The notes: a model not told the origin generated them from the sequence alone. DNA of 64,000 nucleotides from Verrucomicrobiota bacterium (GCA_029548565.1 JAKPNF010000079.1:2101-66100); one strand, 5' to 3'. Numbered from the stretch's first letter, positions 8,604-28,254 are shown. Numbers and translations: made by a program.

Positions 8604-11099
8604 ATGCGAAATAAAATCTTCATTCTTGTGGCCGGTGTTTTGGCGGTACTGGTGGCTGCTGTTTTTTTCAGCCAAAAGGCGGGCAGCCTGTTTGAAAAAA
8701 AGCCCACCCTGCGCACCGACGGCACGCTCGATTACGCGCGCTTTTTCAACGAGCAACTGGGAAAAATGTCACCCGCCGACCGCGCGCTGTTTTTATACAA
8801 GCATTTTGAAAAACTCGACGACGCCCAGTTGCCCGTTATTTTTGCCCAACAAAAGGATATCAACCCCATCTATCGCGACCAAGTGGCGGAAGTTCTCACC
8901 TATCGCTGGGCGGCCAGTGATTGCAACCACGCCTGGCAGGCGTTCGTGACGGAAAAATCATTTCCCATGAAACAGGCCCAGACGCTCATCCGCATCTGGG
9001 CGAACACCGACGTGCAAGGGGCGCTCAAGGCCATCCAGTCCCTCGAAAATACTGTCCACCAAAAAACACTGATCGGCCGGCTAGTCAGTGCCTACGCCGC
9101 CATCGACCCCAGGCAGGCCGCCGAAATCAGCCGCAACCCGGGCATTGAAGCCAAGGGGCAAGCACTGTCTGCCGCCATCGCGCTGTGGGCGCAGGCAGAT
9201 CTGGAAGGTGCCATCACCTACGCGCTTGAAAACGACCTGGCCGGCAACCTGCGTGAAGTATTCGCCTACGAGATTTACCCCAATGGCGGCTACGACGCAA
9301 TGGTCGCGCGCCTAAACTCCTTCAACGAAAAAGACCGCGACAAGGCCGTCGGCGCCATCTTGGAACACCACGCCTTCGTCTTGTTTTACGCCGATGATAT
9401 CGAACGGCTGCTCAACGAATTCCCCTCCCCCGACAGGGACACACAGCACAAACGCTTCAAAACCCTCTTTTACCACCTGTGCAACCGCGATATTCGCGAC
9501 GCCTTCGAGCGCATGCTCAAACTAAGCGACGCGGCGCTGCAAAAGGAGCTCATTAGAATTTCTTTTTACTCTTTTTCGCAGGCCGACACGCCGGCCGCCC
9601 TTAATTTTTTGACCCGCCTGCAAACGATCCTCAAAGAAAAGGATTTTCTCGACGTGGTGCGCGATGTGTCGTACGGACTGCTCAGGCGTGATCCGATCGG
9701 CACCGTCGCTTTTCTCAACACCCTACAGTACGACCCTAGGCTCGAGGAAATAAAACACCGCCTGCCCGATTATCTCGATTATGAGGGCGACAATCTGGAC
9801 AAGGCGGTGGAACTTTTCTCGACGTTCAAATTTTCAAAAGATTATGAGAAACCGTCGCTGTACGCGAATTTCGCGGCCCGTCTTTTTCGAAAGGACCCCG
9901 AGGCCGCTCTGCGTTTTATGCAGACGCTGCAAGACCCCAAAATCAAGCAGGCAATCGGCAGCAGATACGTCGAGGAGACAACCAAAAAGGACTTCGCCAA
10001 GGGTCTGGCCCTATACAAAGAATTGTCCGCAAGTATCGGGCGTGCTTGGTTTTCATTCTACGACGCGGAGAATTTCGACGCCGTAGCCTATATGAAAATG
10101 GCGCGCGAGGCGCTCACCGGGTACACGCAGGCTGAAACGCTGGGCAACATCGTTTCGGAAGCTTTCCGCCGCAACGATGCCAGCGCCACGGAATTATTTG
10201 ACTCTCTGCCTGAGGGTCAGGCCAAGGAAAATGCGTTCAGAACGCTTATGCACGAGTTGGCACAAAATGACCCTATGAAGGCGCTGGAACTGCTGGAAAC
10301 TCAAGGCTCCGAACCGTCTACGCGCTATTCCAAAAACTGGCTGCTGGGCGAAATCGTCAAAAAAGATTTCGAAGGGGGGCTGGCCATGTTGCACTCAGAG
10401 CAATGGCTGCCAAAAATTTTCGGCAATGAGGACACCTGGTCGTTCAGCGGCGAAGGCGGCCTGATTTCACAACTGATGAAAACAGACGCCGCGCTGGTGC
10501 GCGCGCATATCGAGCAGATGCCCGAACAGTACAAAGCGCAGGCGCTATCGGCTTATATATTAAGGTTGGCCAGCGACAACGCCGCTGTCGCCGCCCAAGA
10601 GCTCACAAACCTGCCAGATTCGCAACAAACACGCGACGTGACACAAAATGTCCTGCGCCAATGGTCGGAATTTCAACCGCGCCAGGCCATGCAGTGGGTC
10701 TGCGAGCAATACCCCGACAGCGAGGACAAAACCGCCGCCATGCACTATAAAGATGTCCTGCGCCAATGGGTCAAGGTCGAGCCTGAAGCGGCCTCGCAAT
10801 GGCTCGCCGAGCAACCTGCGGGGCTGGCGCGCGATTCCATGGTCGTGGGGCTGATCGATAGCGAAAAATACGGCGAGCCGGAAGTTTCCATGCAATGGGC
10901 GCAAAGCATCACGGACAAAAATCGGCGCGAAGGTAGCATTGCCGGTATTTTTTCCGTTTGGCGCACCTTCGATCCGCAGGCGGCCACTCAGGCGCTCGAA
11001 ACCTCGGGACTGGGACCGGAAAGAATAAAAGAACTAATACAGCAGCCACTGCTGCGTCACGAAACCCACAATAACTACCGCACTTACTATTTTCACTAA
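8604..11099 (+). CDS. Membrane-anchored alpha-helical repeat protein (W-x3-DP-x2-A-x2-W type repeats)
   Basis: N-terminal TM IFILVAGVLAVLVAAVFF. Recurring ~35-40-aa units, e.g. VLRQWSEFQPRQAMQWV, VLRQWVKVEPEAASQWL, IFSVWRTFDPQAATQAL, LVSAYAAIDPRQAAEI. Confidence 0.75.
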   Translation: MRNKIFILVAGVLAVLVAAVFFSQKAGSLFEKKPTLRTDGTLDYARFFNEQLGKMSPADRALFLYKHFEKLDDAQLPVIFAQQKDINPIYRDQVAEVLTYRWAASDCNHAWQAFVTEKSFPMKQAQTLIRIWANTDVQGALKAIQSLENTVHQKTLIGRLVSAYAAIDPRQAAEISRNPGIEAKGQALSAAIALWAQADLEGAITYALENDLAGNLREVFAYEIYPNGGYDAMVARLNSFNEKDRDKAVGAILEHHAFVLFYADDIERLLNEFPSPDRDTQHKRFKTLFYHLCNRDIRDAFERMLKLSDAALQKELIRISFYSFSQADTPAALNFLTRLQTILKEKDFLDVVRDVSYGLLRRDPIGTVAFLNTLQYDPRLEEIKHRLPDYLDYEGDNLDKAVELFSTFKFSKDYEKPSLYANFAARLFRKDPEAALRFMQTLQDPKIKQAIGSRYVEETTKKDFAKGLALYKELSASIGRAWFSFYDAENFDAVAYMKMAREALTGYTQAETLGNIVSEAFRRNDASATELFDSLPEGQAKENAFRTLMHELAQNDPMKALELLETQGSEPSTRYSKNWLLGEIVKKDFEGGLAMLHSEQWLPKIFGNEDTWSFSGEGGLISQLMKTDAALVRAHIEQMPEQYKAQALSAYILRLASDNAAVAAQELTNLPDSQQTRDVTQNVLRQWSEFQPRQAMQWVCEQYPDSEDKTAAMHYKDVLRQWVKVEPEAASQWLAEQPAGLARDSMVVGLIDSEKYGEPEVSMQWAQSITDKNRREGSIAGIFSVWRTFDPQAATQALETSGLGPERIKELIQQPLLRHETHNNYRTYYFH

Positions 11100-11120: not shown

Positions 11121-13475
11121 ATGCGCATTTTTTATTTTCAACTATTTTGGCTGCTGGCCGGGACGCAGGTTTTCGGCGTGCCCGGCGCCGCCGAACAATT
11201 GCAAACGTTGGCCAAAGCGCCCGACAACTTTGAGCGCGCCGCCGCGCTCGAGCAACTCGCCCACGACACGCCCAAGACACAACTGCCGCAATTGCTTGAG
11301 GCCGCCCACGGCCTCAAGCGCCACTTTGGCGAGCAGGCGCTACAAGTCATCCTATCTCATTGGGCCACCAAAGACCCGCAAACCGCCTTCGAGGCCACGC
11401 AAAAACTGCCCGGCGGGCTCTGGCAACGCGAAAGTTCCATGACGTTTTTCAAAGCATGGGGTTATCACGACCCGCAGGCCGCCTTTGAAACGATTGCAGC
11501 CCACAGAAAAACGGGGCAATCCGCTTATATGCTGGACGGGTTTTGGGAAGGCTATGCCGACAAGGACCCTTTGGCGGCTTTCGCGTTTTGGCTCGAGCAG
11601 CGCGACCGTCACCCTGAATGGCTTTCTAATTTTGACAGCAAGTGCGCCGGGCGCATCTTCAACAGTGCAATGACACGCGCGCCCAAACAAATGCTAGATG
11701 CCGTGCTCGCCATCAAGGACAATCGCACCATTAGTGAAAGCACCCTGCTTAACCCGCTGATGAAAAATTGGTTCGAGGCGGATCCCGAGGGGGCAATCAA
11801 AGCCTGCGCGCAGAGCGCGGTGCCGCACGAGCAGAAGATAAAATTAATACGCGCGCTGGCGTACAGCCACGCGGTGAAAGCGCAGCAAGCGCCGAGTGTC
11901 ACAAAGCTCATTGACCGCCTCGCAAGAGGCCATGAAGCCTCTTCGCTTTACCATTCGCTGTTTAACTCGATCGCATGGTCAAATCCCGCCGACGCGTTTG
12001 ATGGTGCGCTGAAAATTGAAGCCTCCCAAAAGCGCGATTCCGCGCTTAGAGGGGTGCTAACTTCCTGGGTGCAAAAAAATCCCGAGCAGGCGCTCGCGCG
12101 TATCGGGCAAATCGAGCACGATGACCTGCGAGCACAATGCACAGAGCAATTTTGGAAAACCGTCGGTTACATGCAAAGCGACAAGGCGTTGGATTTTATT
12201 CGGAAGATTGAGGATCCAAAACAGCAACGCCGCGCGCTGTTCGAATATGCGGGATCTTCCGTTTATTCGCACAATTTCGACATCGATGCCTTTTTGGAAA
12301 AACTGCCAGACCCCCAGGAACGCCAGGGCGTGCTGCGCACTATGCTCAAAAACGCGCGCTACGATATTTTTGAGTCTAATCAAAACACAAAAAACCTGAA
12401 ATCTTTGCGCAAATACGCCCTGGAGCTGCCTCCTTCACAGGAAAAAATTCAAGTGCTGACTTCGCTGCTCGACCCCAGGGACATCAAGGGCTCGTTACAA
12501 TGGATCAATGAAAACACCCAAGGCGTGCAAGCCGAGCGGCTCGTCGAGTACCTGTTTTCACCTAACCGTAATTGGCATAACAGGGAAAACGTGTCGTTTG
12601 AAGTGTACCAACTACTGCCCGATGGCCGCCTGCGCGACGAGGTATTGCCCTACGTCGCGCAGAGCATGGCGCTCAAGCAGCCGGAAATCGTCGCCCAGTG
12701 GCTTAGTGAAATGCCGGCGAGCTGGGCGCGCAACGCCGCCTACGGCGCCTATGTGGGCGCGCTGGCAAAAAACGACCCGCAAGCCGCCATCGAGGCGCTT
12801 CAAAACGCTCCGGAAAATTATGTGCCCGCCGGCGAAATAAGTGACATCGCCTTTACCTACGCGTCAAAAGACCCCGCCGCCGCATTGCAGTGGTCGCTGG
12901 AGATTGGAAACGATTCTTTGCGCACACAGGCGCTGACGGCATTGGCCAATGCCTGGGGCAAAAACGACCCACTTCTGGCTCTGCAAACCTTTCGCGCCCT
13001 TGAGGACGAAAAACTTTCCAACATGGGCATATATAATACCGCCATAAATTGGGCGCAAAAAGACCCCGAGCAAGCGCGCCAATGGGTCGAGGTCAACGTC
13101 GCGCAAGACCCCAAAGCGGCCGCGCAGGTGACCAGCGCGCTTATGGAAAGCTGGGTTTCGCTCGACCCGCAGGCAGCATCCCAATGGATGGCCGACTTGC
13201 CCGAGGGACAACAGCGCATCGCGGCGATCGTCGGCCTAGCGCAGTCTCGGGAATTATACAAATCCCCCGACGCGGTGCTCGAATGGGTGATGACCCTGCC
13301 CGCCGACGAAAAATTCAACTACGGCAGGCATCCGACAGACCGCAAGACTTTGATGACCCGGACGCTCGAAAGGCTAAAATACAATGATCGCAAGGCCCTC
13401 GAAGCATTTTCTCAGCGCACCGACATCTCGCAAGCGGAAAGGAATTTGGCCACTGCGGTGCTTAATCGCGAGTAA
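11121..13475 (+). CDS. Secreted or anchored alpha-helical repeat protein, paralogue of 8604..11099
   Basis: Starts 21 nt after the upstream gene. At least 12 repeats, e.g. ILSHWATKDPQTAFEA, FFKAWGYHDPQAAFET, VLTSWVQKNPEQALAR, LANAWGKNDPLLALQT, AINWAQKDPEQARQWV, LMESWVSLDPQAASQWM. Confidence 0.75.
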   Translation: MRIFYFQLFWLLAGTQVFGVPGAAEQLQTLAKAPDNFERAAALEQLAHDTPKTQLPQLLEAAHGLKRHFGEQALQVILSHWATKDPQTAFEATQKLPGGLWQRESSMTFFKAWGYHDPQAAFETIAAHRKTGQSAYMLDGFWEGYADKDPLAAFAFWLEQRDRHPEWLSNFDSKCAGRIFNSAMTRAPKQMLDAVLAIKDNRTISESTLLNPLMKNWFEADPEGAIKACAQSAVPHEQKIKLIRALAYSHAVKAQQAPSVTKLIDRLARGHEASSLYHSLFNSIAWSNPADAFDGALKIEASQKRDSALRGVLTSWVQKNPEQALARIGQIEHDDLRAQCTEQFWKTVGYMQSDKALDFIRKIEDPKQQRRALFEYAGSSVYSHNFDIDAFLEKLPDPQERQGVLRTMLKNARYDIFESNQNTKNLKSLRKYALELPPSQEKIQVLTSLLDPRDIKGSLQWINENTQGVQAERLVEYLFSPNRNWHNRENVSFEVYQLLPDGRLRDEVLPYVAQSMALKQPEIVAQWLSEMPASWARNAAYGAYVGALAKNDPQAAIEALQNAPENYVPAGEISDIAFTYASKDPAAALQWSLEIGNDSLRTQALTALANAWGKNDPLLALQTFRALEDEKLSNMGIYNTAINWAQKDPEQARQWVEVNVAQDPKAAAQVTSALMESWVSLDPQAASQWMADLPEGQQRIAAIVGLAQSRELYKSPDAVLEWVMTLPADEKFNYGRHPTDRKTLMTRTLERLKYNDRKALEAFSQRTDISQAERNLATAVLNRE

Positions 13476-13962: not shown

Positions 13963-14493
13963 TTATTTCTTCTTGGCAGCTTTTTTCTTAGCCGGGGCCT
14001 TTTTCTTGGCCGGGGCCTTTTTCTTGGCGGGAGCCTTCTTGGCGACGGCTTTCTTGGCAACAGCCTTCTTCTTGGCCGGCGCTTTCTTCTTAGCCGGAGC
14101 CTTCTTGGCAACGGCCTTCTTGGCTACTTTTTTCTTAGCAGGTTTTTTAGCAGGCATGGCGATATGTTGTGTTAGGTTTATGTTTAATCCGCTGCGCGGA
14201 TTGGTTGGCAGTGCGTCCAATGCGGTTCGCAGAAGCTCGCCCACGCTCACGCGGTGTGCCCGCGCGGCGTTGAGTAAAAGCGCCTTTTGTTCCGCAGGCA
14301 GACGCACCGAAAGCTGCCTATGTGCGGGCTTGCCCGCGTCAAATTCGCCAAAATCGAAAGTGCCGATCGCATAGCGAACCACGTCGCTGAGCGAACGCGC
14401 GCCGCTTTTGTTTTGAAAAGACGACACACGCTCAAGGAGGTCTTCCTTGATGTCGAAAGTCAGCGGGGAAACGCTCTCTTCAACTACGGGCAT
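13963..14493 (-). CDS. Tandem ribbon-helix-helix DNA-binding protein with a histone-H1-like Lys/Ala/Pro C-terminal tail
   Basis: Two RHH-like units: LTFDIKEDLLERV...SLSDVVRYAIG and LSVRLPAEQKALLLNAARAHRVSVGELLRTALDAL. These are followed by a 64-aa tail MPAKKPAKKKVAKKAVAKKAPAKKKAPAKKK... Confidence 0.75.
   Translation of the reverse strand: MPVVEESVSPLTFDIKEDLLERVSSFQNKSGARSLSDVVRYAIGTFDFGEFDAGKPAHRQLSVRLPAEQKALLLNAARAHRVSVGELLRTALDALPTNPRSGLNINLTQHIAMPAKKPAKKKVAKKAVAKKAPAKKKAPAKKKAVAKKAVAKKAPAKKKAPAKKKAPAKKKAAKKK
13966..14157 (-). repeat. Coding tandem repeat (AKK/PAKKK units, including a 66-nt / 22-aa duplication)
   Basis: The protein segment VAKKAVAKKAPAKKKAPAKKKA occurs twice in tandem. 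The DNA copies differ by synonymous changes. Confidence 0.85.
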
Positions 14494-14514
14494 GTATGCG
14501 ATTTGTTTTTGGAG

Positions 14515-14533
14515 GTATCAAAGAATTTGATAC
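14515..14533. promoter_or_regulatory. Palindromic candidate operator upstream of the RHH-H1 gene
   Basis: GTATCAAA-gaa-TTTGATAC has perfect 8-bp arms and sits 22 nt upstream of the ATG at 14493. The related direct repeat TTCCCGATAC occurs at 14622-14631 and 14643-14652. Confidence 0.35.
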
Positions 14534-14815
14534 ATCTTTTGGGTACACTTTACGCTTATTTTTTTGAAATGCAATAAAAATTTTTCATTTTTTTTAAAAA
14601 AGTTTTTCGACCGTACCAAAATTCCCGATACACCGTAGGGTTTTCCCGATACGCCCTGTACCCTTTTTGTCAATACAAAGCGGTAGTTGGCAGGCCAATA
14701 CACTGTCCCGAAAGTTTAAATACGTTTGGCTGCCTCCAATAAGCCGCCAAAAGACACGCTCTTGGCCGAAAAATTCTTCAACCGCCCTTCCCCGCTCTGC
14801 CGTCCGAAACGATTC

Positions 14816-15697
14816 TTAGCGCTCCAGAAATTTCCTGATCGCGGGGATGACCGTATCGCCCGCGTCTTCCAGTAGATAGTGTCCCGCATCCGGCACCATG
14901 AGCGGCTCGGATTCAGGAAAACGGCGGCGAAATTCCTCGAAAAATTTGGGCGTGAAGCAAAAGTCCGCCCCGCCCCATGGAAGCATAAGCGGCTTATATC
15001 GCAGCAGTTGCAGTCCCTTGTCTATGCGTTCCAGCTCCTCGTAGCTGGGGTGCGCCTTCTCCATCGGAATGTCCTGCACAAAGCGCGCGACAGCCACGCG
15101 GTTTTTCCAATTGTTGTAGGGCCAGAGGTAGCCGTGGCGCACGGCCGGCGGCAGTTTTTTCTTAACCGCCATGAACGTCGCGGGCCACGCGAAGGCGTTG
15201 AACCCGCGCACCAAAATCTCGCCCAAAACCGGCGTGCGGCACAGCGCGATGCTGCCCGGAATGTCCTTGGACAAAAAAGCCCCCGTGTTCATGAGCACGA
15301 TGCGCCGCACGCGGTCAGGCTCAAGCGTGGCGATACCCATCGCCACGGCGCCCCCCCAATCGTGCGCGACCAAGTCGTATTGCTGGATGCCCAAAGAATC
15401 AATTAACGCGCGCACATGCGCAATGCGGTGGCGCAGGCGGTAAGAAAATTCCTGCGGCTTGTCGGACAGCCCGCAACCGAGGTGATCGGGCGCGATGCAG
15501 CGGAAATCCGGTGCCAACTCCTTTATCAAATTACGGTAATAAAAAGACCAGGTCGGGTTGCCGTGCAACATCACGACGGGGCGCCCCTGCCCTACGTCGA
15601 CATACTGAATGCGTCCCACGCCCGTCTCAAACCAGTGATGCTTGAACGGGTAAAGGGCGCGAATGTCGGGCGGCAGCAGAGAAATGTCTGTCATCAC
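14816..15697 (-). CDS. Alpha/beta hydrolase, haloalkane-dehalogenase-like (OleB-like)
   Basis: VVMLHGNPTWSFYYRNL, CIAPDHLGCGLSDKP and the nucleophile-elbow region LVAHDWGGAV. Lies 10 nt downstream of the OleA-like gene. Confidence 0.7.
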   Translation of the reverse strand: MMTDISLLPPDIRALYPFKHHWFETGVGRIQYVDVGQGRPVVMLHGNPTWSFYYRNLIKELAPDFRCIAPDHLGCGLSDKPQEFSYRLRHRIAHVRALIDSLGIQQYDLVAHDWGGAVAMGIATLEPDRVRRIVLMNTGAFLSKDIPGSIALCRTPVLGEILVRGFNAFAWPATFMAVKKKLPPAVRHGYLWPYNNWKNRVAVARFVQDIPMEKAHPSYEELERIDKGLQLLRYKPLMLPWGGADFCFTPKFFEEFRRRFPESEPLMVPDAGHYLLEDAGDTVIPAIRKFLER

Positions 15698-15707
15698 GTG
15701 AAAGGGG

Positions 15708-16736
15708 TTAAAATTGCAGCGCGGCCATCTGGCAGGACAAACCGCTGCCGATGCCGAGCAAGGCGGCCTTGTCGCCAGGCTTGAGTGCGCCCGCTTCGAT
15801 GGCGGTTGAGAGCGTCAGCGGCAATGAGACACTGCCGACATTGCCCATCGTCTCAAAGGTGGAAAAATCTTTCGCGATGTCCAGTCCCAGCGCCTCGTAC
15901 AGGCGCAACTGATGGCGGCGGCCTACCTGATGACAGATCACGTGGTCAGGCGTGGCGGGTGTCCAACTAGTTTGGGCGGAAAAATCACCCCAAGTCGCGC
16001 GGGCGAGCGCGATGCCCGCTTCCAGCAGCGCCTCGGAGTCCGTGCGCATATCCAGCGCGTCGCCGCTGCTGTTGCCCTCGCACAAGGAATTGGAGGCGGT
16101 GTCGGTACGCGCGCAGGCGGCCAGCAGTTTGGGCGAGCCGGGCGAAAGATCCTCGCGGCACAAAAGCGCACCGACGGCTCCCGAGCCTATCGTGAGGTTC
16201 GCAAAAAAGGGCTTGATCGCATTGCGGCTGAGCGAGGGATCCAGCAGTTGCTTGATCGTGTGCTCGACCAGCGGAAACCCGTTTTCTCCCGAAAGCACGA
16301 GCGCGGTGTCGATCTGCCCGCTTTCAATCATGGAGGCGGCCGTGACCAGCCCGTTCATAAAGCCCAGGCAGGCGTTGGAAATGTCAAAAAAGCCCGTGCG
16401 CGCAGACAAACCCAGCGCGCCGTGCACATAAGCGGCGGTGGCCGGTTCCAAACGGTCGCGACAAACGGCGCAGTGAAACACCCAGTCGATTTTTTCTTTT
16501 GGCAGGCGCGTCTTTTCCAGAACCGCTTTGCCCGCCAGCGTACTGGCTTGGCTCGGCGTTGTGCCCGGGTTCCAAAAACGCCGCTCGCGAATGCCGGTCA
16601 TCAATTCCAAACGCCCCTTGGGCAGCTTCAGGCGTTCGTACAGGGGCGAAAGCTCGTCCTCCACGCGCTCGCTCGTCCACACGTTGGGCGGCAGCACGTG
16701 CGCGATCGATTCGATAACTGTCTTTGAAAATTTCAT
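15708..16736 (-). CDS. Thiolase-superfamily KAS III-like condensing enzyme, OleA-like
   Basis: Candidate catalytic residues: Cys in DISNACLGF, His in VICHQVG, Asn in MGNVGS. RDRLEPATA resembles the Glu-bearing OleA segment. C-terminal ALLGIGSGLSCQMAALQF. Lacks the FabH G-x-G-x-Y-x-P N-terminus and the AAC[AS]GF motif. Confidence 0.65.
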   Translation of the reverse strand: MKFSKTVIESIAHVLPPNVWTSERVEDELSPLYERLKLPKGRLELMTGIRERRFWNPGTTPSQASTLAGKAVLEKTRLPKEKIDWVFHCAVCRDRLEPATAAYVHGALGLSARTGFFDISNACLGFMNGLVTAASMIESGQIDTALVLSGENGFPLVEHTIKQLLDPSLSRNAIKPFFANLTIGSGAVGALLCREDLSPGSPKLLAACARTDTASNSLCEGNSSGDALDMRTDSEALLEAGIALARATWGDFSAQTSWTPATPDHVICHQVGRRHQLRLYEALGLDIAKDFSTFETMGNVGSVSLPLTLSTAIEAGALKPGDKAALLGIGSGLSCQMAALQF

Positions 16737-16742
16737 CTTCGT

Positions 16743-17540
16743 TTACTCTGGCCGGCTGGCCAAACGCACGATCTCCGCGTCAAAATAATTGATGTCCATC
16801 CCCGCGTTGACAGTGACGCCCTGCGCGTTGACACCGCTGGAGCGTTCGGACAAAAGAAACACGGCCACGTCAGCCACTTCCTGCGTTTTGAGCGCCTGCT
16901 TGCGCATCGTCATCTTTTCGGCGTACAAATAATTGTCCATGTAGCCGGGGATGCCCGCCGATGCGCTGGTCTTGAGCGGCCCGGCGTTCACGGTGTTGAA
17001 GCGCACCCGCGTGTCTTTTGAAAAACTCTTGGCCAAAAAACGCGCGCAGGATTCCAGCGCGGCTTTGATCGGCGACATATAGCCGTAGTTCTCCGCCGTC
17101 ACCTGCGAGGAGATGCCCAGCGCCACGACCGAGGCATCATCGGTCAGATGCGGCTTGAACGCGCGCGCCAGTTCCACAAGCGAAAAGGCGGAGATAGTGG
17201 CCGCCTGCAAAAAATCCGCGCGCTTGGTTTCATGAAAAGGCTTCATGCCCTCGGCGTAATTGGCCCAGGCCACCGAATGCAGCAGCCCCGCAAACGGCGC
17301 GTGCGCGGCGGCTTGGGCGGCCAGCGCGTCGATGTCGCTTGGGTTTTCAAAATCGCACACATAGACGGGGTCGTCGCCCGTCAGCGCGGCGACGCTTTCC
17401 TTGCGCGCGGCGCTGCGCACGCTGTACACAACCTTTGCGCCTTGCTCCTTAAGCGTGCGCGCGACATGCCAGGCCACGCTTTTTTTATTGGCGAGCCCCG
17501 TGATCAGAAACGTTTTTCCCTCGAGGTTTAAAAAGGACAT
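16743..17540 (-). CDS. FabI-family enoyl-(acyl-carrier-protein) reductase-like SDR
   Basis: N-terminal LEGKTFLITGLANKKSVAW (E. coli FabI has GKRILVTGVASKLSIAY). Tyr-x6-Lys in YGYMSPIKAAL. RFNTVNAGPLKTSA. Confidence 0.75.
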   Translation of the reverse strand: MSFLNLEGKTFLITGLANKKSVAWHVARTLKEQGAKVVYSVRSAARKESVAALTGDDPVYVCDFENPSDIDALAAQAAAHAPFAGLLHSVAWANYAEGMKPFHETKRADFLQAATISAFSLVELARAFKPHLTDDASVVALGISSQVTAENYGYMSPIKAALESCARFLAKSFSKDTRVRFNTVNAGPLKTSASAGIPGYMDNYLYAEKMTMRKQALKTQEVADVAVFLLSERSSGVNAQGVTVNAGMDINYFDAEIVRLASRPE

Positions 17541-17559
17541 GGCGCGGGCGGTGCGGGTT

Positions 17560-18000
17560 TTAAGACTGCGGGTTTTCTTCCGCCAGCATAGCGACAGTGA
17601 AATCGACCGACAAGACCAGTTTGCCGTCCTGCCGCACGATGCCGTGCAGCGTGAAAAATTTGTTTTGGCTCACTTCGCCGAGTTTTACCTCGATCGTGGT
17701 CACCGCGCCCGGGCGCACCATGTTTTTAAACTTCGCGCCGTGAATGCGGCCCAAAACGGGCACGGTTTTTTCGCCCGCGGGCATCTTGTCCGCCAAAAAC
17801 ACGGCCGCCGCCTGAAACACCGACTCGCACAGAAGCACTCCCGGCGTCAGCGGATTGCCCGGGTAATGCCCCGCGTAAAAGGCGCTGTCCGCGCGCCACA
17901 GGTGCTCGGCAACCAGGCCGTCTTCGCGGCGTTCAAGCACCTTGTCCACAAACAAAAACGGCGGACGGTGCGGGATTTTTTGCGTGACGGTGTCGTTCAT
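17560..18000 (-). CDS. FabZ/FabA-like hotdog-fold 3-hydroxyacyl-ACP dehydratase
   Basis: [13 protein letters not shown] and [23 protein letters not shown] are the FabZ signatures (catalytic His, and Glu in the LCES segment). Its start overlaps the upstream stop as ATGA. Confidence 0.75.
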
Positions 18001-19418
18001 AAAGTCCTTAAATACGAGTCGAGTTTGCCGGAAGCGATAACCCCGTAGTTGATCGTGCCGAGCCAGCCCGACATGATGATCCCCACGCTGCCTGCGTGAA
18101 ACAGACCGGGGACGCGCTCGGGCATTTCCATCGAGACTTTCAGCCCTTCGAACTTCGTGCCAAAGCTCGTGCCCTGTTCGTGCAGCACATAGCGGCGCAC
18201 AGTGCGCGGGGTAGCCGCCTCCGTCCAGTCGATCTTTTCGCGCACATCGGGAATGAGCGTTTCCAGCCCGCGAATCGATTCCTCGATGATGCGCTTTTTA
18301 TGAAAAGCGTAGTCCTCGTCCGATAGATTCGCCCAGTCGTCCCACTTGGCATTGATGGAGGCCACGACCGCGTAGCGGGGGTCGCGGCGCTGCGGGCGCG
18401 TGTCGGGATAATAAACGGAAAAGGTGCGGCTGGTGGTGTGAAAGTCGGTGATTTCTGCGCTGGAATATTCCGGCGCACCCGAGGTGAAAACTAAGTCCCC
18501 GATATTGGGAATCGTCTCGCCCTTGCGAATGCCCATATAAACCTGGCAGGAACTCGTGTTGTTGCGCACTGCGCGCGCCTCGGCGCAAAAATCCTCCGGC
18601 AAATTTTCCTCGCCGACCATGCCAAAGAGCATGTTTTTGATATTGGCGTTGGACAAAACCGCGCGGCAGGCGATTTTTTGGCCGTTGACGATCACCCCGG
18701 CGACTTTTTTATTTTCATCCAGGCATACGCGCTCGACCTTTGCTTTCATGGCGATATGCACGCCGTTCATCAGCAGCTCGGCGCGCATCAGGGCGATCAG
18801 GCGGTCGGTCCCACCTTGATAGATATACACGCCCTTGCTCATGAAGTTGGAAAACACGATCCCGTAGGTGATCGCGGGGTCTTCCAGCGTCGAGCCATTG
18901 GCGTAAGCGATCGGTTCCATCAGCAAACGGTGCACGTCGCTGCGGCCGGGAAAAAATTCCTCAAACAACTCGCGGGTCGTGCGCGGGTCGTTGTCGTAAT
19001 AATTCATCGCCTTGAGCGCCTCGTAAAAGCCCTCGACCCTCTCGGGCGCGACGCCGAAGTCGCTCGTCAAAATCCGCGTGAAATCCTCGCGCGTGAACGT
19101 CGTTTCTATGTTGAACTGCGGGTTGATAAACCGCACGCGGTGCAGTTGCACAATGCTGTCCGAAATTTCCTTCGTCCAGTAGCGGCGGCAGGATTTTTTC
19201 ATCCCCATCGGAAACCCGTGCAGCGAGACGTCGAAAATATGCCCGCCCGGGCGCTTGAAGGAGGTCGCCAACCCGCCGAGCTGGTAATGATGCTCGCACA
19301 ACAACACGCTGCGCCCGAGCTTGGCCAACGTGTTGGCGGCCGTAAGCCCCCCCAGCCCGCCGCCGACAACGACAACGTCATAGGAAGATTTTAAATGAGC
19401 AAGCGCCTTGAGTGCCAT
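17997..19418 (-). CDS. Phytoene-desaturase (CrtI) family FAD-dependent oxidoreductase
   Basis: N-terminal dinucleotide fold [37 protein letters not shown]. About 470 aa with a C-terminal GLFHAGS motif typical of COG1233-type amine-oxidase-fold enzymes. Confidence 0.7.
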
Positions 19419-19513
19419 CTATCGGGAAAAGAAAAAGATTTGGAGAAAGAACAAGCCTAAAATACCCGCCCCGCAATGGCAAGCGCAAGCGCCGCTAGCC
19501 CTTGTGACGAAAA

Positions 19514-19546
19514 CAAAAAAACCTCCTGAAAACAGGAGGTTTTTTT
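19514..19546. terminator. Bidirectional intrinsic terminator downstream of ilvC
   Basis: A-run, stem ACCTCCTG (19521-19528) / CAGGAGGT (19533-19540) with loop AAAA, then T-run 19541-19546. Confidence 0.8.
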
Positions 19547-19565
19547 GGTAAAAATAATCGCCGGA

Positions 19566-20597
19566 TTATTTCGTGTAGGAAGCCTGGGCGCCCTTGATGT
19601 TGCGCTTGGGCATCCAGGGCATCAGCGCGCGCAGGCGCTGGCCTGTCTTTTCGATCTGGTGCTTTTCACCGGCCTTGAGGAGCTTATTGTAATTCTTCAA
19701 GCCGCTTTTGTACTCGTTGACCCACTGGCGAGTGAACTTGCCGCTCTGGATTTCCTTGAGGATCTCGCCCATCGCCTTTTTGCTGGAGGCGTTGATCACG
19801 CGCGGGCCGCGGGTGACGTCGCCGTATTTGGCGGTTTCGGAAATCGAAAAACGCATGCCGGAGATGCCGGACTCGATCATGAGATCGACGATCAATTTGA
19901 GCTCGTGCAGGCATTCAAAGTAAGCCATCTCGGGCTGGTACCCAGCCTTGACGAGCGTCTCGAAGCCCGCGGTCACAAGCGCGGAAGCGCCGCCGCACAA
20001 CACGGCCTGCTCGCCGAACAGGTCGGTCTCGGTCTCTTCCTTGAAAGTCGTCTGAATGACGCCCGCGCGGGTGCCGCCGATGCCCTTGGCCCACGCCAGC
20101 GCGATCTGCTTGGCCTTTTTGTCGGCGTCCTGATAAATGGCGATGAGAGCGGGGACGCCCTTGCCTTCCAGGTACTGCTGGCGCACGATGTGGCCGGGGC
20201 CCTTGGGCGCGACCATGATCACGTTGATGCCCTTCAAGGGCTTGATCAGCTTATAATGGACGGCCAAGCCGTGGATGAAAACGAGGGTCTTGCCCTTTTT
20301 GAGATTCGGCTCAATGTCCTTTTTGTAGACGTCGGCCTGCTTCATGTCGGGGATGGCGACCAGCATCACGTCGGCCTTTTTGACGGCCTCGGCGGTTGTC
20401 ATCACCTCAAAGCCTTTGGCCTTGGCGACCTTCCAGGACTTGCTCTTGGGATACAGGCCGACGATGACCTTGCAGCCGCTGTCCTTGAGGTTCATCGCGT
20501 GGGCGTGACCCTGCGAGCCGAATCCAAGGACGGCCAACGTTTTGTTTTTGAAGACGCTCAGATTGGCATCCTTTTCTGTGTAGACTTTAGCGGGCAT
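19566..20597 (-). CDS. ilvC: Ketol-acid reductoisomerase (class I)
   Basis: [23 protein letters not shown]-binding motif. About 340 aa. Overall reads like IlvC (e.g. [15 protein letters not shown]). Confidence 0.93.
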
Positions 20598-21165: not shown

Positions 21166-21242
21166 TGGTGGACGGCGACGGATTCGAACCGCCGACATCC
21201 TGCGTGTAAAGCAGGCGCTCTAACCGACTGAGCTAGCCGTCC
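21166..21242 (-). tRNA. tRNA-Val (anticodon UAC), CCA encoded
   Basis: Reverse complement is GGACGGCTAGCTCAGTCGGTTAGAGCGCCTGCTTTACACGCAGGATGTCGGCGGTTCGAATCCGTCGCCGTCCACCA. It has a 7-bp acceptor stem, a CCTGC/GCAGG anticodon stem with loop TTTACAC, and a TTCGAAT T-loop. Confidence 0.9.
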
Positions 21243-23677: not shown

Positions 23678-24937
23678 TTATTCTTCCCACTTCTTAAACA
23701 CCACCACGCCATTGTGGCCGCCGAAGCCGAGGTTGTTGGACATCGTGACCTTCGGATTGACTGTGCGTTTGACGGCGGGAACGTAGTCCAGGTCGCATTC
23801 GGGGTCGGGTTCCTCGATGTTGATCGTGGGGGGGACTTCGCCGGTTTGGATGGCTTTGCAGCACACGGCCGCTTCCACGCCGCCGGCGGCGCCGAGCATG
23901 TGGCCGACCATGCTCTTGGTGGAGCTGACTGGAATGCTTTTGGCGCGCTCGCCAAAGACGGTTTTTATCGCCATCGTCTCAAACTTGTCGTTGTAGGGCG
24001 TGGAGGTGCCATGGGCGTTGATGTAGTCCACGTCGTCGGGGGAGAGCCCCGCGTCGTCCAGCGCCGCGCGCATGCAGTCGGCCAAGCCTTCGCCGTTGGG
24101 GGCGGGGCTGGTGATGTGGTAGGCGTCACAGTTGGCGCCGTAGCCGACCAGTTCGCAATAAATTTTCGCGCCGCGGGCCTGGGCGTGTTCCAAAGTTTCC
24201 AATAATAGGACACCCGCGCCCTCGCCCATCACAAAACCGTCGCGGTTTTTGTCGAAGGGACGCGAGGCTTTTTCGGGGGTGTCGTTGTATTTTGTGCTCA
24301 TCGCGCGCATCGAGCAAAAGCCCGCGCACGACAGCATGCTGACGGCCGCCTCGCTGCCGCCGGCGAGCATCACGTCGGCCTTGCCCAGGCGCATGAGGTT
24401 GAGCGCTTCGCCGAGGGCGTGGGTGCCGCTGGCACAGGCGCTCACCACGGCGAAGTTGGGTCCCTTGGCTCCGAACTCGATGGCGACAATGCCGCTGGCG
24501 ATGTTGGAGATCAAAGACGGGATCATGAAGGGGGAAATTTTGCGCGGGCCGCTTTCGTGCAGCACACGGGACTGCTTTTCGATCGTCTCCATCCCGCCGA
24601 TGCCGGAGGCCAGCAAGATGCCGAAGCGTTTCGGGTCAAAGGCGCCCGGCTCCACGCCCGCGTCCTTGAGCGCGAGCTTGGAGGCGGCCACGCCCAACTG
24701 CGTGTAGCGGTCGGAGCGCTTGGCCTCCTTGGGGTCCATGTACTGGGAAGGGTCAAAGTCCTTCACCTCGGCGGCCACACGGGTGGGCAGCGCCGACGCG
24801 TCAAAGCGCGTGATGCAGCCCAAGCCGCTTTTGCCCTGGAGCATGTTGTCCCAGGTTTCTTCGATGGAATACCCCAGCGGCGTCACAGCGCCGATGCCGG
24901 TGACAACCACCCGTTTAAGCGTCAAAGTCTTAGCCAT
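23678..24937 (-). CDS. fabF: Beta-ketoacyl-ACP synthase II
   Basis: Active-site Cys in VVSACASGTHALG, His motifs INAHGTSTP and SMVGHMLGAAG. Located downstream of acpP. Confidence 0.93.
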   Translation of the reverse strand: MAKTLTLKRVVVTGIGAVTPLGYSIEETWDNMLQGKSGLGCITRFDASALPTRVAAEVKDFDPSQYMDPKEAKRSDRYTQLGVAASKLALKDAGVEPGAFDPKRFGILLASGIGGMETIEKQSRVLHESGPRKISPFMIPSLISNIASGIVAIEFGAKGPNFAVVSACASGTHALGEALNLMRLGKADVMLAGGSEAAVSMLSCAGFCSMRAMSTKYNDTPEKASRPFDKNRDGFVMGEGAGVLLLETLEHAQARGAKIYCELVGYGANCDAYHITSPAPNGEGLADCMRAALDDAGLSPDDVDYINAHGTSTPYNDKFETMAIKTVFGERAKSIPVSSTKSMVGHMLGAAGGVEAAVCCKAIQTGEVPPTINIEEPDPECDLDYVPAVKRTVNPKVTMSNNLGFGGHNGVVVFKKWEE

Positions 24938-25096
24938 CCTTTAAGGTCGGTAAGGGATAAATGAAAAGATAAGCAACCCGCGCACAGACTCCAAGGGACG
25001 ACCCTGGCGTCAATACCGGCACGCGGCCAAAAGGAAAATGAGCGAGTATCCTCCCACGCGGATTTTTAGGCCCGCACGGGAAGACACAACAGGGAA

Positions 25097-25357
25097 TTAG
25101 GCCGAGGCCTTGCCCTTGATGTACTCGATGACGGCGGAGACCGTCTGGAGCTTCTCGGCGTCGGATTCGGGAATCTCGCCGCCCTTGATTTCGTCCTTGA
25201 ATTCTTCTTCGAAGGCCATGATAAGCTCGACGATGTCGAGGGAGTCGGCCCCCAGGTCGTCCAAAAAGGACGCCTCGGCGGTCACCTGCTCCTCGTTCAC
25301 ATTGAGCTGGTCAACGATGATTTTCTTGACGCGTTGTTCGATGGTTTGATCGGACAT
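25097..25357 (-). CDS. acpP: Acyl carrier protein
   Basis: [19 protein letters not shown] contains the phosphopantetheine-Ser motif. 86 aa. Confidence 0.95.
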
Positions 25358-25406
25358 AAGGATTTGTTATTGAGTTGGTTTAGTAACTTAAGGGGTTGTC
25401 TTGGTT

Positions 25407-26150
25407 TCACATCGTCATTCCACCGTCAACGGCAATGACTTGTCCCGTGATGTAACCGGCTTGTTCCGATGCGAGATAGGCAACGAGCGTAGCCACGTCC
25501 GCCGCCTGACCAAATTTTTTGAGGGGAATGGTCTTTGAGGCCATCTCCTTGATCGAGGGATCCAAAACGCCCGTCATGTCGGTCTCGATGAAACCGGGGG
25601 CCACGGCGTTGACCGTGACAGTGCGCGAGGCGATTTCACGCGCCAGCGACTTTGTCAGCCCCATCATGCCCGCCTTGGCGGCGGCGTAGTTGACCTGCCC
25701 CGCGTTGCCGACTAAGCCGACGACGCTCGTGATATTGATGATGCGCCCCCAGCGGGCGGAGGTCATCGGGCGGACAAGCCCCTTGATCCAGTAAAAACAG
25801 CTGTTGAGGTTCGTTTTGACGACGTCCTCAAAATCCTCGTTGCTCATGCGCAGCAGCAGCGTGTCGCGGGTGATCCCGGCGTTGTTGACGAGGATGTCAA
25901 CCTTTTCAAATTCCTTGAGGATGGCCGCGCAAGCCTCGGCGACGGCGGCCGAATCGGCCACGTCCACGCAGTAAGCCTTGGCCTTGCCGCCCTTTCCCAC
26001 GATTTCCTTGGCCACCGCCTCGCAAGTGGCCGATTTGCTCACGCAAATAACGGTGGCGCCGCCTTCGGCCAGCGTCAGGGCGATCTGTCTGCCGATACCC
26101 CTGCCGGCTCCCGTTACCAGTGCGACTTTGTTCTCAAAGGAAATTTGCAT
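25407..26150 (-). CDS. fabG: 3-oxoacyl-ACP reductase
   Basis: VTGAGRGIGR, NNAGI, and Y-x3-K in NYAAAKAGMMG. Located upstream of acpP. Confidence 0.9.
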   Translation of the reverse strand: MQISFENKVALVTGAGRGIGRQIALTLAEGGATVICVSKSATCEAVAKEIVGKGGKAKAYCVDVADSAAVAEACAAILKEFEKVDILVNNAGITRDTLLLRMSNEDFEDVVKTNLNSCFYWIKGLVRPMTSARWGRIINITSVVGLVGNAGQVNYAAAKAGMMGLTKSLAREIASRTVTVNAVAPGFIETDMTGVLDPSIKEMASKTIPLKKFGQAADVATLVAYLASEQAGYITGQVIAVDGGMTM

Positions 26151-26313
26151 GCGTTGCTAGTAATAGTAAAAACGGCTCAGGTGCCCTCACGCAAGGTGAA
26201 AAGATTGCCCGAAAGCGCCGTGTTTTTCACATAAAGGATTATTAACTCACGTTTGAGCGCCGATTTCAAGGAGTTTTTAACGAGCCCGCCGCGCCTTCGG
26301 GCGGAACAAGTGT

Positions 26314-27243
26314 TCACTTCTTCAAAAAGAACCCACGTTGTTTTTCACTGACGGGCAGACCCACGCGTTCCATCGCGGCGAGCAAGTCTTCCCAGACTTT
26401 GCGGCGTTCGGACATCAGTTGATTGCGCAGCAGGTAGGACGGGTGATAGGTGGGGATGAGGTCTATGCCCTCGAACTGAAACCATTTTCCGCGAATGGCG
26501 CCCATTCGGTACGGCTCAGCGGGAGCCAGCAGTCCGTTGGCCGCCGTACCGCCAAGCGCGACGATGACCTTTGGTTTCACGATAGCGAGCTGCGCCTTGA
26601 TATACGGCAGGCAAAAATCCATCTCCTGCTGTTTGGGCGGGCGGTTGCCGACTTCAGTGGCCTGCTTTGGCCGCCAGTTCATGATGTTGCCGATGTAGAC
26701 ACTTTCGCGCGAAAGCCCCATGGCGACAATCATTTTGGTGAGCAACTGCCCTGCCGGACCCACGAAGGGTTCGCCCTGCACGCTTTCGTCCATGCCGGGG
26801 GCCTCGCCGCAAAAAAAGATGTCGGCATCCAGCGAGCCCACGCCGAAGACAACCTTTCTGTTGGGGTGCAGGTGGCCGTTGCACACGGGGCAACCGAGCA
26901 CTTTTTCGCGCAGCCAATTCCATTGCGCCTGCTTGTCGCCTGCAGGCAATTCAAAAACCGGCGGCTCGGGAATCGTGTCGTCGTGCGCGACACTGGCCGC
27001 GCGCACGGAAGGTTTGGCGGGGATACCCCTTGATGCCGGGGCACTAGCGGCATGTGCAAAATCTCCCAATGAAACCGCGCCCGTCGTGTGCGACGGCGCC
27101 GGTGCAATGGGCTTCGCGTTTTTCGGCGCGAGCTTGCGCAGCTCCGCCAGTGTCGCGTCCTCCAGATAAAGATGCGTCTCGCCCTGCTCGCGCAGGGTTT
27201 TCACCTGGGCGATGACCCCTTCTATCTGTTCGCGCAACGCCAT
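26314..27243 (-). CDS. Family-4 uracil-DNA glycosylase with an N-terminal extension of about 110 aa
   Basis: CPVC...FFCGEAPGMDE, PFVGPAGQLL and PTYHPSYLLRN motifs in the C-terminal ~200 aa. The N-terminal third is an unrelated Ala/Pro-rich region. Confidence 0.8.
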   Translation of the reverse strand: MALREQIEGVIAQVKTLREQGETHLYLEDATLAELRKLAPKNAKPIAPAPSHTTGAVSLGDFAHAASAPASRGIPAKPSVRAASVAHDDTIPEPPVFELPAGDKQAQWNWLREKVLGCPVCNGHLHPNRKVVFGVGSLDADIFFCGEAPGMDESVQGEPFVGPAGQLLTKMIVAMGLSRESVYIGNIMNWRPKQATEVGNRPPKQQEMDFCLPYIKAQLAIVKPKVIVALGGTAANGLLAPAEPYRMGAIRGKWFQFEGIDLIPTYHPSYLLRNQLMSERRKVWEDLLAAMERVGLPVSEKQRGFFLKK

Positions 27244-27246
27244 CGC

Positions 27247-28254
27247 TTAAAGTTTCCAATTCCCCGAAAGCATAACCTTGCCCATGCGCCCCTTTTCGAG
27301 GTTGCGCGCGACGGCGGCCTTGGCCTCGGCAATCGGGTAGATTTTTTCGACGGGCATTTTCAGCACGCCCGCGGCCATCAGCTCGAAGACGCCCTTGAGC
27401 GCGGCGAGGTATTCCTCGCGCGAATGCGTGCGGTTCCATTTGTCCATCCAAAACCCGCGCAGGCGCAGGTCGCTAAAAATCAAAAAGCGCGTGGGGAAAC
27501 GGATGGCTTCGGTGCTGGCGCCGCCGAGTGTGACGATCGTGCCGCCGTCGGCCATCGATTTTATCTGGCGCCACACGCTGTTGCCGCCGACGGTGTTGAT
27601 TCCCAGGCGGATCGCCCCACCGTTGGTCAGCTCTTTGAGCTGCTTGGGAAATTCGTCGTCGTCCAACAAAACGATATCCGCGCCCGCCTCTTTGAGCATG
27701 TTTTCCCAACGCAAATCGCGCACGACCGAAATCGTCTTGAGCCCGCGCGCGCGGCACAATTGCGTGAGCGCAAAGCCCAGCGCGGAGGAGGCAGCGTTTT
27801 GAATCACCCAGTCGCCGGGTTTCAGATCGTTGGCAAAAGTTTCCAAAAGCACATAGGCAGTCAAGCCGTTGACAAAAGCCTGCGCCGCCTGCTCGGTCGG
27901 GACGTTTTCGGGAATTTCGATGAGATCGGCCGCCTTAAACGTGCCCGCCTCGCGCCACACGCCGGGTTCCTCGGGAAAACGCACGCGCGTGCCGATTGTT
28001 ACATTCTTCACATCGGCGCCCACGGCCACGACCTCGCCCACGCCCTCGCGCCCTGCGATCGCGGGCAAAGCGCGCAGCCGCCCGTACGAGCCGCCTATCA
28101 TCCCCATGTCGGATGGGTTGATACTCGCGCAGCGCAGCGCCACGACCGCCTCGTCTGGCTGGGGAACTGGGACGTCAATCGGTTCCACGGCCAAAACGTC
28201 TTTGGGATCCCCGTTGGTATGATGGCGCACGGCCAAAGCGGTTTGCAGGTTCAT
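27247..28254 (-). CDS. MDR-superfamily NADPH-dependent reductase, MECR/Etr1-like (2-enoyl thioester reductase-like)
   Basis: CASINPSDMGMIGGSYG resembles the INPSDIN-x-IQG-x-Y motif of MECR/Etr1. The nucleotide-binding segment NAASSALGFAL lacks zinc ligands. Confidence 0.6.
   Translation of the reverse strand: MNLQTALAVRHHTNGDPKDVLAVEPIDVPVPQPDEAVVALRCASINPSDMGMIGGSYGRLRALPAIAGREGVGEVVAVGADVKNVTIGTRVRFPEEPGVWREAGTFKAADLIEIPENVPTEQAAQAFVNGLTAYVLLETFANDLKPGDWVIQNAASSALGFALTQLCRARGLKTISVVRDLRWENMLKEAGADIVLLDDDEFPKQLKELTNGGAIRLGINTVGGNSVWRQIKSMADGGTIVTLGGASTEAIRFPTRFLIFSDLRLRGFWMDKWNRTHSREEYLAALKGVFELMAAGVLKMPVEKIYPIAEAKAAVARNLEKGRMGKVMLSGNWKL

Follow-up and report, generated by a model that had tools for sequence, protein, structure and literature searches.

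A 64,000-nucleotide stretch of DNA from a Verrucomicrobiota bacterium (GCA_029548565.1 JAKPNF010000079.1:2101-66100), referred to here as the window, contains a five-gene operon in which predicted members of the OleA and OleB families are preceded by three genes of a different kind. These encode a flavoenzyme of the carotenoid-desaturase fold (FAD1), a FabZ-like hotdog dehydratase, and a FabI-like short-chain dehydrogenase/reductase (SDR). The operon is conserved throughout the verrucomicrobial order Opitutales. Its best explanation, which we hold with roughly even confidence, is that the extra genes belong to a module for building or tailoring the acyl chains of a canonical Ole pathway, with oleC and oleD unlinked to the operon. 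The evidence comes from curated family models, catalytic residues, gene order across Opitutales, and the loci of sister lineages.

The operon had been singled out in an initial annotation of the window, and the five minus-strand open reading frames (ORFs) are all found at the coordinates given there (Table 1). Its gene labels also match the domain calls, namely β-ketoacyl-acyl carrier protein synthase III (KAS III), alpha/beta hydrolase, FabI-type SDR, FabA/FabZ hotdog, and amine-oxidase/CrtI-type flavoprotein. The start of the hotdog gene overlaps the stop of FAD1 through an ATGA at 17997-18000, and the remaining intergenic gaps are 19, 6 and 10 nt, as previously described. The last gap depends on the start assigned to OleB, which is either the GTG at 15697 or the ATG at 15694 used in the Joint Genome Institute (JGI) call (292 aa), and measures 13 nt in the latter case. 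On the upstream side, the hairpin running from 19547 to 19514 between ilvC (19566-20597) and FAD1 is the strongest terminator-like site of the scanned region, and its stem and T-run bear out the proposal that a terminator isolates the operon from ilvC. No sigma-70 consensus was found in the 95-nt leader (19419-19513). On the downstream side, oleB is separated from the next gene by a 320-nt AT-rich spacer (14494-14815). By its anatomy, the set fits a single operon.

Table 1. Features of the five-gene operon and its upstream boundary, in order of transcription for the genes.
Feature	Position	Strand	Description
CrtI/PDS-fold flavoenzyme FAD1	17997-19418	minus	473 aa; first gene
FabZ-like hotdog dehydratase	17560-18000	minus	146 aa
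FabI-like SDR	16743-17540	minus	265 aa; probable enoyl-thioester reductase paralogue
OleA-family thiolase	15708-16736	minus	342 aa; predicted head-to-head acyl condensing enzyme
OleB-family alpha/beta hydrolase	14816-15697	minus	293 aa; probable beta-lactone decarboxylase
ilvC intrinsic terminator	19514-19547	minus	15-bp stem, then T-run; upstream operon boundary
Leader	19419-19513	minus	95 nt, terminator to FAD1 start; presumed promoter region

The condensing enzyme is assigned by its sequence to the OleA family (acyl-CoA:acyl-CoA alkyltransferase, EC 2.3.3.20). It passes the NCBIfam model NF006720 with 420 bits (cutoff 285) and fails the FabH model TIGR00747, where it scores 101 bits against a cutoff of 292. 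Its best match among solved structures is OleA of Xanthomonas campestris (3ROW and others; 228.8 bits, E 9e-67), to which it is 38% identical, and the best FabH structure scores 76.9 bits. The equivalents of Cys143, His285 and Asn315 of OleA, together with the Glu117 base, all align in the window protein. The Glu117 equivalent is kept in 121/123 representatives of the family, and E. coli FabH has Phe at this position. A published search pattern for OleA, EPxx[AS]x(14,18)DxxNACL (PMC7158056), matches the window protein and 82/82 orthologues. The motifs NACLGF, RDRLEPATA, ICHQVG and MGNVGS, quoted in the initial annotation when it called the enzyme OleA-type and not FabH, are all in the translation, and both the structure matches and the Glu117 equivalent uphold that call. 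A phylogeny had been proposed as a check. In a neighbour-joining tree of representatives at 50% identity, the window sequence groups with its close relatives in a clade that falls within the OleA family, beside canonical members. Other head-to-head ketosynthases, of the DarB, StlD, PqsD, CorB or MxnB type, were considered and ruled out on scores of only 29-47 bits (29-34 bits for the DarB models; 29-47 bits for PqsD, PqsC, CorB and MxnB).

The hydrolase is similarly predicted to be of the OleB type (beta-lactone decarboxylase, EC 4.1.1.114), with greater similarity to this family than to haloalkane dehalogenases. Its identity is 48% (266 bits) with OleB from a canonical oleABCD cluster that we recovered (locus L168) and 41% (221 bits) with an OleB of the Xanthomonad type (locus L086); across canonical OleBs it ranges over 41-52%. 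The best solved haloalkane-dehalogenase-like chain scores 139.7 bits, and the protein falls below every haloalkane dehalogenase equivalog cutoff. A haloalkane dehalogenase identity is accordingly ruled out, and the previous OleB-type assignment stands, along with the motifs HGNPTWSFYYR, DHLGCGLSDKP and HDWGG on which it drew, all of which are in the translation. The Asp nucleophile (HDWG) is present in 74/74 orthologues and the acid motif WGxxD in 73/74; the catalytic His is also present. In the window and in 55/58 related loci, oleB is immediately downstream of oleA.

These loci come from a search for relatives of the OleA-like gene in one genome per species, which returned 281 sequences. The best 80 all belong to Opitutales/Opitutaceae. 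Gene order was counted in 58 loci with sufficient flanking DNA. The full order of flavoenzyme, hotdog, SDR, OleA and OleB occurs in 44 of them, an answer to the earlier call for a test of conservation, and Coraliomargarita akajimensis has the same arrangement as the window. Complete genomes with the cluster include those of Oleiharenicola sp. Vm1 (NZ_CP180537.1) and C. akajimensis DSM 45221. A further 11/58 loci have only the last four genes, without the flavoenzyme and with housekeeping genes flanking. Hotdog, SDR, OleA and OleB therefore constitute an invariant core in 55/58 loci, and the three deviating loci carry oleA-oleB alone, SDR plus oleA, and oleA alone. Chance does not account for the arrangement, given its recurrence in dozens of species. 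Many Opitutales loci extend the module further upstream. Among 50 loci with at least 6.6 kb of upstream sequence, 36 have a colinear block consisting of a 203-aa ORF, a FabF-like ketosynthase (KS), a small acyl carrier protein (ACP), and a second CrtI-like flavoenzyme (FAD2) that is ~24% identical to FAD1. The KS of this block reaches 324 bits with the FabF model (cutoff 494) and so is not a housekeeping FabF. The window itself has no KS-ACP-FAD2 block and contains only the housekeeping fabG-acpP-fabF genes, 5 kb away.

The three extra genes of the operon belong to recognizable superfamilies and score below the equivalog and family-model cutoffs given here. FAD1 matches the Pfam domains Amino_oxidase (67.6 bits) and NAD_binding_8, and scores 104.6 bits with TIGR02730 (cutoff 587) and 71 bits with TIGR02734 crtI_fam (cutoff 238). 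An AlphaFold (AF2) model built on 66 orthologues has a mean predicted local distance difference test score (pLDDT) of 88.8. The closest solved folds to this model are the carotenoid desaturase 4REP (template modelling (TM) score 0.76), the plant phytoene desaturase (PDS) 5MOG (0.73) and CrtI 4DGK, with only 15-17% sequence identity. FAD1 is thus a distant member of the phytoene-desaturase / carotenoid-isomerase / RetSat superfamily, an assignment that holds at superfamily level only. Its orthologues are 58-80% identical across Opitutales. The hotdog protein matches Pfam FabA with 63 bits and reaches neither FabZ equivalog (NF000582, 89.8 bits, cutoff 113; TIGR01750, 82.2 bits, cutoff 155). Its best match in the PDB is FabZ 3D6X (62 bits), with the GHxPG His and LCES Glu aligned, and the His motif is present in 70/70 orthologues. 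The SDR matches Pfam adh_short_C2 with 177 bits. Among equivalogs it matches FabI models only, all 14 of them at 96-160 bits against cutoffs of 299-477 (the top score is 159.6 bits, cutoff 370), and B. subtilis FabI 3OIF scores 130 bits. The FabI Y-x6-K motif is retained in 75/75 orthologues. By this motif the SDR probably works like FabI, yet it is not a FabI orthologue.

Sister lineages show where the module genes are found outside Opitutales. Among the nearest canonical relatives, P0132, an OleA sharing 49% identity with the window protein, is encoded in an oleA-oleB-oleC-oleD cluster of textbook form (L168), and P0129 (L174) is encoded in an oleA-oleB pair followed by the start of oleC. 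The gene for P0130 (L171) is divergent from KS, ACP and flavoenzyme genes. The most informative locus is L173 (ena:ERZ25072490 ctg171897), which encodes P0141. One strand carries a TrmB-like gene, KS, ACP, a FAD2 orthologue, a FAD1 orthologue (56% identity), a FabG-like ketoreductase (KR), the hotdog gene and the FabI-like SDR (55% identity). The other strand carries oleA, oleB and the N-terminus of oleC at the contig end. In the L173 lineage, then, orthologues of the window's three extra genes form a self-contained set resembling a type-II fatty acid synthase (FAS) and neighbouring a canonical ole cluster. In Opitutales, this FAS-like set became colinear with oleA-oleB, with neither oleC/oleD nor a KR nearby. 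In L172 (ena:ERZ26696514 ctg218312, 1.97x coverage), a pfa-like cluster with PS-DH, polyketide synthase (PKS)-type KS and FabA domains is followed by oleA-oleB-oleC. An apparent FabA-OleA fusion in this locus (P0253) was considered as a Rosetta stone and dropped as a probable frameshift artefact of the low-coverage long-read contig.

Since the copies in relatives travel with their own KS, ACP and KR, the FabI-like and FabZ-like genes are pathway-specific paralogues, a possibility that the initial annotation had left open and that the failed curated cutoffs also indicate. This bears on a reading in which the cluster would be housekeeping FAS II and its KAS III, FabI-like and FabZ-like proteins the organism's only FabH, FabI and FabZ. 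When E. coli FabH, FabZ and FabI were used as tblastn queries, the cluster genes were the only matches in the window and related loci, and the window and ~1.3 Mb of related loci yielded no canonical fabH, fabI or fabZ. The nearby fabG-acpP-fabF genes and a solitary fabD have no fabH partner, and the NCBI family name of the condensing enzyme is '3-oxoacyl-ACP synthase III'. Against these points, the match of the KAS III to OleA has three times the score of its match to any FabH, and the position of the FabH Phe is occupied by the Glu specific to OleA. Its gene is coupled in translation to that of an OleB orthologue, a protein without a function in FAS, and sister sequences sit in oleABCD clusters. 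The SDR and hotdog proteins fail every curated FabI/FabZ cutoff, L173 has a complete private KS-ACP-KR-DH-ER set (DH, dehydratase; ER, enoyl reductase) beside its ole genes, and oleA is separate from the module genes in L008 and L066. We regard a housekeeping role as highly improbable, and it was dropped as the principal explanation on account of the OleA/OleB matches, the failed cutoffs and the private set of L173.

In the mechanism that we favour, OleA and OleB would act as in other Ole systems, with OleB using its Asp nucleophile to decarboxylate a beta-lactone and release a cis-olefin and CO2. The flavoenzyme, DH and ER, joined by KS, ACP, FAD2 and KR where these are present, would make up a private type-II FAS-like line with flavin-dependent desaturase or isomerase steps. 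This line would elongate and tailor (desaturate, isomerise or saturate) the acyl chains that OleA joins. Keto-reduction by OleD and ATP-dependent beta-lactone formation by OleC would be supplied by unlinked oleC and oleD genes, and the end product would be a long-chain, probably unsaturated, membrane hydrocarbon. Our data show the anatomy of the operon, family membership from sequence and fold, conservation, the local lack of oleC and oleD, and the presence of the module beside oleABC in L173; we infer what the substrates are, that the module acts before OleA, and that oleC and oleD are present elsewhere in the genome. A dedicated acyl-chain tailoring module feeding OleA had been one of the possibilities raised in the initial annotation, and it is favoured here by the module orthologues beside oleA-oleB-oleC in L173.

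The same enzymes could in principle process the condensation product instead. FabG together with the FabZ-like and FabI-like proteins might carry the 2-alkyl-3-ketoacyl intermediate through complete reduction, giving a 2-alkyl-branched fatty acid (mycolic-type, deoxygenated); alternatively, a long-chain ketone might arise by decarboxylation of the keto acid. The OleB-like protein would then have drifted to some other Asp-nucleophile reaction, and the flavoenzyme would desaturate the product. OleA alone reportedly gives ketones, as Sukovich is said to have found in 2010. A DH and an ER follow KS and KR in any FAS cycle, their genes are directly upstream of OleA throughout the invariant core, and no OleC or OleD is local. 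The hydrolase, however, shows no sign of functional drift at its level of identity to canonical OleBs, since all catalytic motifs are kept. The L173 module is divergent from oleABC and self-contained, from KS and ACP through KR, DH and ER, and resembles a chain-building line and not a system for post-condensation processing. A non-olefin product of this kind therefore seems to us improbable.

The remaining question concerns OleC and OleD, and we searched for both with queries from the two canonical clusters recovered in our analysis (L086 and L168). In agreement with the initial annotation, neither flanks the oleA-oleB pair. Searches by tblastn (E<1e-3 for OleC) gave no OleC homologue, either in the 64-kb window or across 84 Opitutales loci with 10-kb flanks, and no OleD homologue in the window or within 10 kb in the same 84 loci. 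The sole OleD matches near the loci are weak, cover an N-terminal Rossmann region, and fall in a sugar-epimerase gene 6-7 kb away on the opposite strand. This upstream epimerase was ruled out as OleD, as it is of the GDP-mannose-dehydratase/UDP-glucose-epimerase type, lies on the opposite strand, and is similar in its N-terminal Rossmann region only. Pfam annotation of the window's other large ORFs identified a dcw cluster of cell-wall genes, the ilv genes and proteins of unknown type, none of them an AMP-binding or 3beta-hydroxysteroid dehydrogenase (3beta-HSD) protein. As a positive control, the same tblastn search of 35 Xanthomonad-type loci recovered OleC in 20/35 and OleD in 18/35, with the module genes in none. 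The local absence of both genes in Opitutales is therefore real. Because the only known substrate of OleB is the beta-lactone made by OleC, and the OleB triad is intact throughout the clade, we infer that oleC and oleD exist unlinked elsewhere in these genomes.

Three published reports touch on this point. oleC has been reported in Opitutaceae metagenome-assembled genomes (MAGs) (PMC10176705), and ole genes in Verrucomicrobia, with olefin production by a Verrucomicrobium, were reportedly found by Sukovich et al. in 2010, as summarised in PMC7158056; both reports favour oleC and oleD elsewhere in the genome, and neither is decisive. The Opitutae MAGs Tous-C4FEB and Tous-C10FEB are said to carry an 'oleABCD operon' (PMC5673642), a statement that does not match the local gene content of these MAGs (L072 and L053).

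A non-canonical Ole route that does without OleC and OleD was also put forward in the initial annotation. In such a route the OleA product would stay thioester-bound, the SDR (or FabG) would reduce its 3-keto group, the hydroxyl would attack the thioester without ATP, perhaps aided by the hotdog protein, and OleB would decarboxylate the beta-lactone. ATP-independent lactonisation from thioesters has a precedent in the beta-lactones made by thioesterases, for example obafluorin. The route would fit the local absence of OleC and OleD in every Opitutales locus examined, the constancy of the hotdog, SDR, OleA and OleB core, and the lack of named Verrucomicrobia among the 120 closest OleC relatives listed; the intact OleB triad means that some leaving-group-bearing substrate must exist. 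Several observations nevertheless stand against it. The SDR has a FabI-type Y-x6-K motif and matches FabI models only, not ketoreductases, and the hotdog protein retains the His and Glu of a FabZ dehydratase. The module orthologues of L173 coexist with oleC, and oleC is on record for Opitutaceae MAGs (PMC10176705). Overall we consider the route unlikely, and find no positive support for it given that the L173 module orthologues adjoin oleA-oleB-oleC and that the OleB triad is present in 74/74 orthologues.

Several points also weigh against a module that supplies acyl chains to a canonical pathway with distant oleC and oleD. The first is the local absence of OleC and OleD described above, and the placement of these genes elsewhere is itself deduced from genomes sampled as a 64-kb window plus 10-kb flanks. 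The 120 closest relatives of the nearest canonical OleC are, where named, from Myxococcota and Planctomycetota and include no named Verrucomicrobia, although this search is uninformative. Four loci (L008, L066, L165 and L169) carry oleA-oleB or oleA alone with no module genes near, oleA being apart from the module genes in L008 and L066. The Opitutales clusters are without the KR that L173 has. Finally, the DH, ER and flavoenzyme may act on precursors ahead of OleA, or else on its condensation product or the final olefin.

A more speculative version of the acyl-chain-supply model can also be considered. The module could be a hitherto unrecognised, Pfa-independent, and possibly O2-independent, source of unsaturated or polyunsaturated acyl chains, and the Opitutales pathway might lack OleC and OleD altogether, with the beta-lactone formed from a thioester and not from an acyl-adenylate. 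We think this combination doubtful. If true, it would mean a new flavin-based chemistry of acyl desaturation or isomerisation together with a shortened Ole pathway.

A number of observations concern the surroundings of the cluster in other Opitutales. The KS-ACP-FAD2 block is in every case preceded by the conserved ORF of ~200 aa (L028 3590-4201, and 35 further Opitutaceae loci), which has no Pfam or NCBIfam match. The TrmB-like gene of L173 (205 aa) occupies the position of this ORF and has no detectable similarity to it. In C. akajimensis (L001 5282-8603), a photolyase gene and a gene for a YfcH-type epimerase (Epimerase plus DUF1731) precede the cluster on the same strand, and the flavoenzyme gene that the epimerase gene overlaps is shorter, at 326 aa. 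In L052 and L057, homologues of the photolyase are encoded immediately after the cluster. These neighbours hint at a link of the cluster to light or oxidative stress. An APS kinase gene downstream of oleB in L028 was considered as a clue to sulfonate-activated decarboxylation and dropped, as it occurs in one locus only.

Elsewhere in the window, the housekeeping fabG-acpP-fabF genes (23678-27243, minus strand) are without their usual fabH-fabD partners, and a gene for a family-4 uracil-DNA glycosylase stands at the expected place of fabD. In Opitutaceae loci, fabD is solitary and lies ~5 kb from the cluster. The neighbouring ORF at 27247-28254 (minus strand) had been proposed as a MECR-like second enoyl reductase. 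This proposal does not hold: the protein is a generic member of the medium-chain dehydrogenase/reductase (MDR)/quinone-oxidoreductase family, below every curated cutoff (best match the PIG3 family, 113 bits, cutoff 297), with nothing connecting it to fatty-acid synthesis. Beyond the AT-rich spacer that follows oleB, a 176-aa protein with a ribbon-helix-helix (CopG/RelB-like) segment is encoded at 13963-14493 (minus strand), where the JGI contig calls a 182-aa gene. Six large ORFs (562-1247 aa) have no Pfam match, namely 718-2406, 2468-6211, 8604-11099 and 11121-13475 on the plus strand and 51337-53052 and 53079-54788 on the minus strand. The two compared with NCBIfam, 8604-11099 and 11121-13475, lie directly downstream of the operon region and have no match there either. 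A tRNA-Val(TAC) gene at 21166-21242 (minus strand), immediately upstream of ilvH-ilvC, is the only RNA gene found in Rfam and tRNA scans of the window. Within the dcw cell-wall cluster, at roughly 30.7-49.8 kb, a 722-aa ORF (35074-37242, minus strand) combines MurC-like Mur ligase domains with MurB (FAD_binding_4 plus MurB_C) in an apparent murC-murB fusion.

Comparison with known systems places the Opitutales operon apart from each of them. With the canonical oleABCD clusters of X. campestris, Shewanella oneidensis and Micrococcus luteus it shares the OleA and OleB families, the adjacency of oleA and oleB, often with translational coupling, and all catalytic residues. It differs in that oleC and oleD are adjacent in L086, L168 and 18-20 of the 35 control loci and not here, and in that flavoenzyme, dehydratase and enoyl-reductase genes start the operon, an arrangement seen in no Xanthomonad-type ole locus examined. 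A precedent for dedicated precursor supply is the linkage of pfa (polyunsaturated fatty acid (PUFA) synthase) and ole genes in Shewanella, Geobacter and Planctomycetes (PMC3098273, PMC6463001). In both cases a system that makes acyl chains sits beside ole genes and is thought to supply precursors to OleA, as in the example of L172. Instead of the multidomain Pfa megasynthase, the Opitutales loci have a dissociated type-II set (KS, ACP, DH and ER, with KR in L173) and one or two CrtI-fold flavoenzymes. The oleACD clusters for beta-lactones such as lipstatin and nocardiolactone (PMC7064751) are likewise ole-derived, with a partial four-gene set and extra tailoring genes, and are the mirror image of the operon described here: they have no oleB and keep oleC and oleD, whereas the Opitutales operon keeps oleB and has no local oleC or oleD.

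A further parallel comes from anammox bacteria, whose candidate ladderane clusters combine ACP, FabZ, FabF, 'phytoene desaturase' and radical SAM genes (PMC2649909, PMC4790861). The anammox 'phytoene desaturases' do not desaturate phytoene (PMC4790861). Both systems belong to the Planctomycetes-Verrucomicrobia-Chlamydiae (PVC) superphylum, and in both, paralogues of type-II FAS enzymes occur with CrtI-like flavoenzymes for which acyl-chain desaturation has been proposed. The Opitutales cluster has no radical-SAM genes and is coupled to OleA and OleB, and the function of the anammox genes is itself unproven. The likeness to housekeeping FabH, FabZ and FabI is one of fold and motif (Cys-His-Asn, His/Glu and Y-x6-K, respectively), and the cluster genes differ from them in falling below curated cutoffs, in the OleA-specific Glu, and in the far better match to OleA. 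A curated survey of OleA contexts lists three types, which are oleABCD, an oleBC fusion, and oleACD without oleB (PMC7064751). The layout of oleA-oleB with FAS-type and CrtI-type genes is outside these three, and no account of it turned up in our searches of the literature.

Long-chain membrane hydrocarbons are the products of Ole pathways, which have attracted interest for biofuels. The operon defines a fourth, order-wide ole context, in which oleA-oleB is joined to private FAS-type and carotenoid-desaturase-like genes, often with their own KS and ACP. It also urges caution with published statements of an 'oleABCD operon' in Opitutae (PMC5673642). Its interest lies in this order-wide conservation, in the question of whether OleC and OleD are dispensable, and in the prospect of a flavin-based modification of acyl chains that feeds head-to-head lipids. 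For the CrtI-like 'fatty-acid' flavoenzymes of PVC bacteria, such as those of the anammox ladderane candidates, the operon offers a tractable setting. More broadly, it points to a new kind of line for precursor supply or tailoring of head-to-head lipids in the abundant Verrucomicrobia of freshwater, soil and marine environments.

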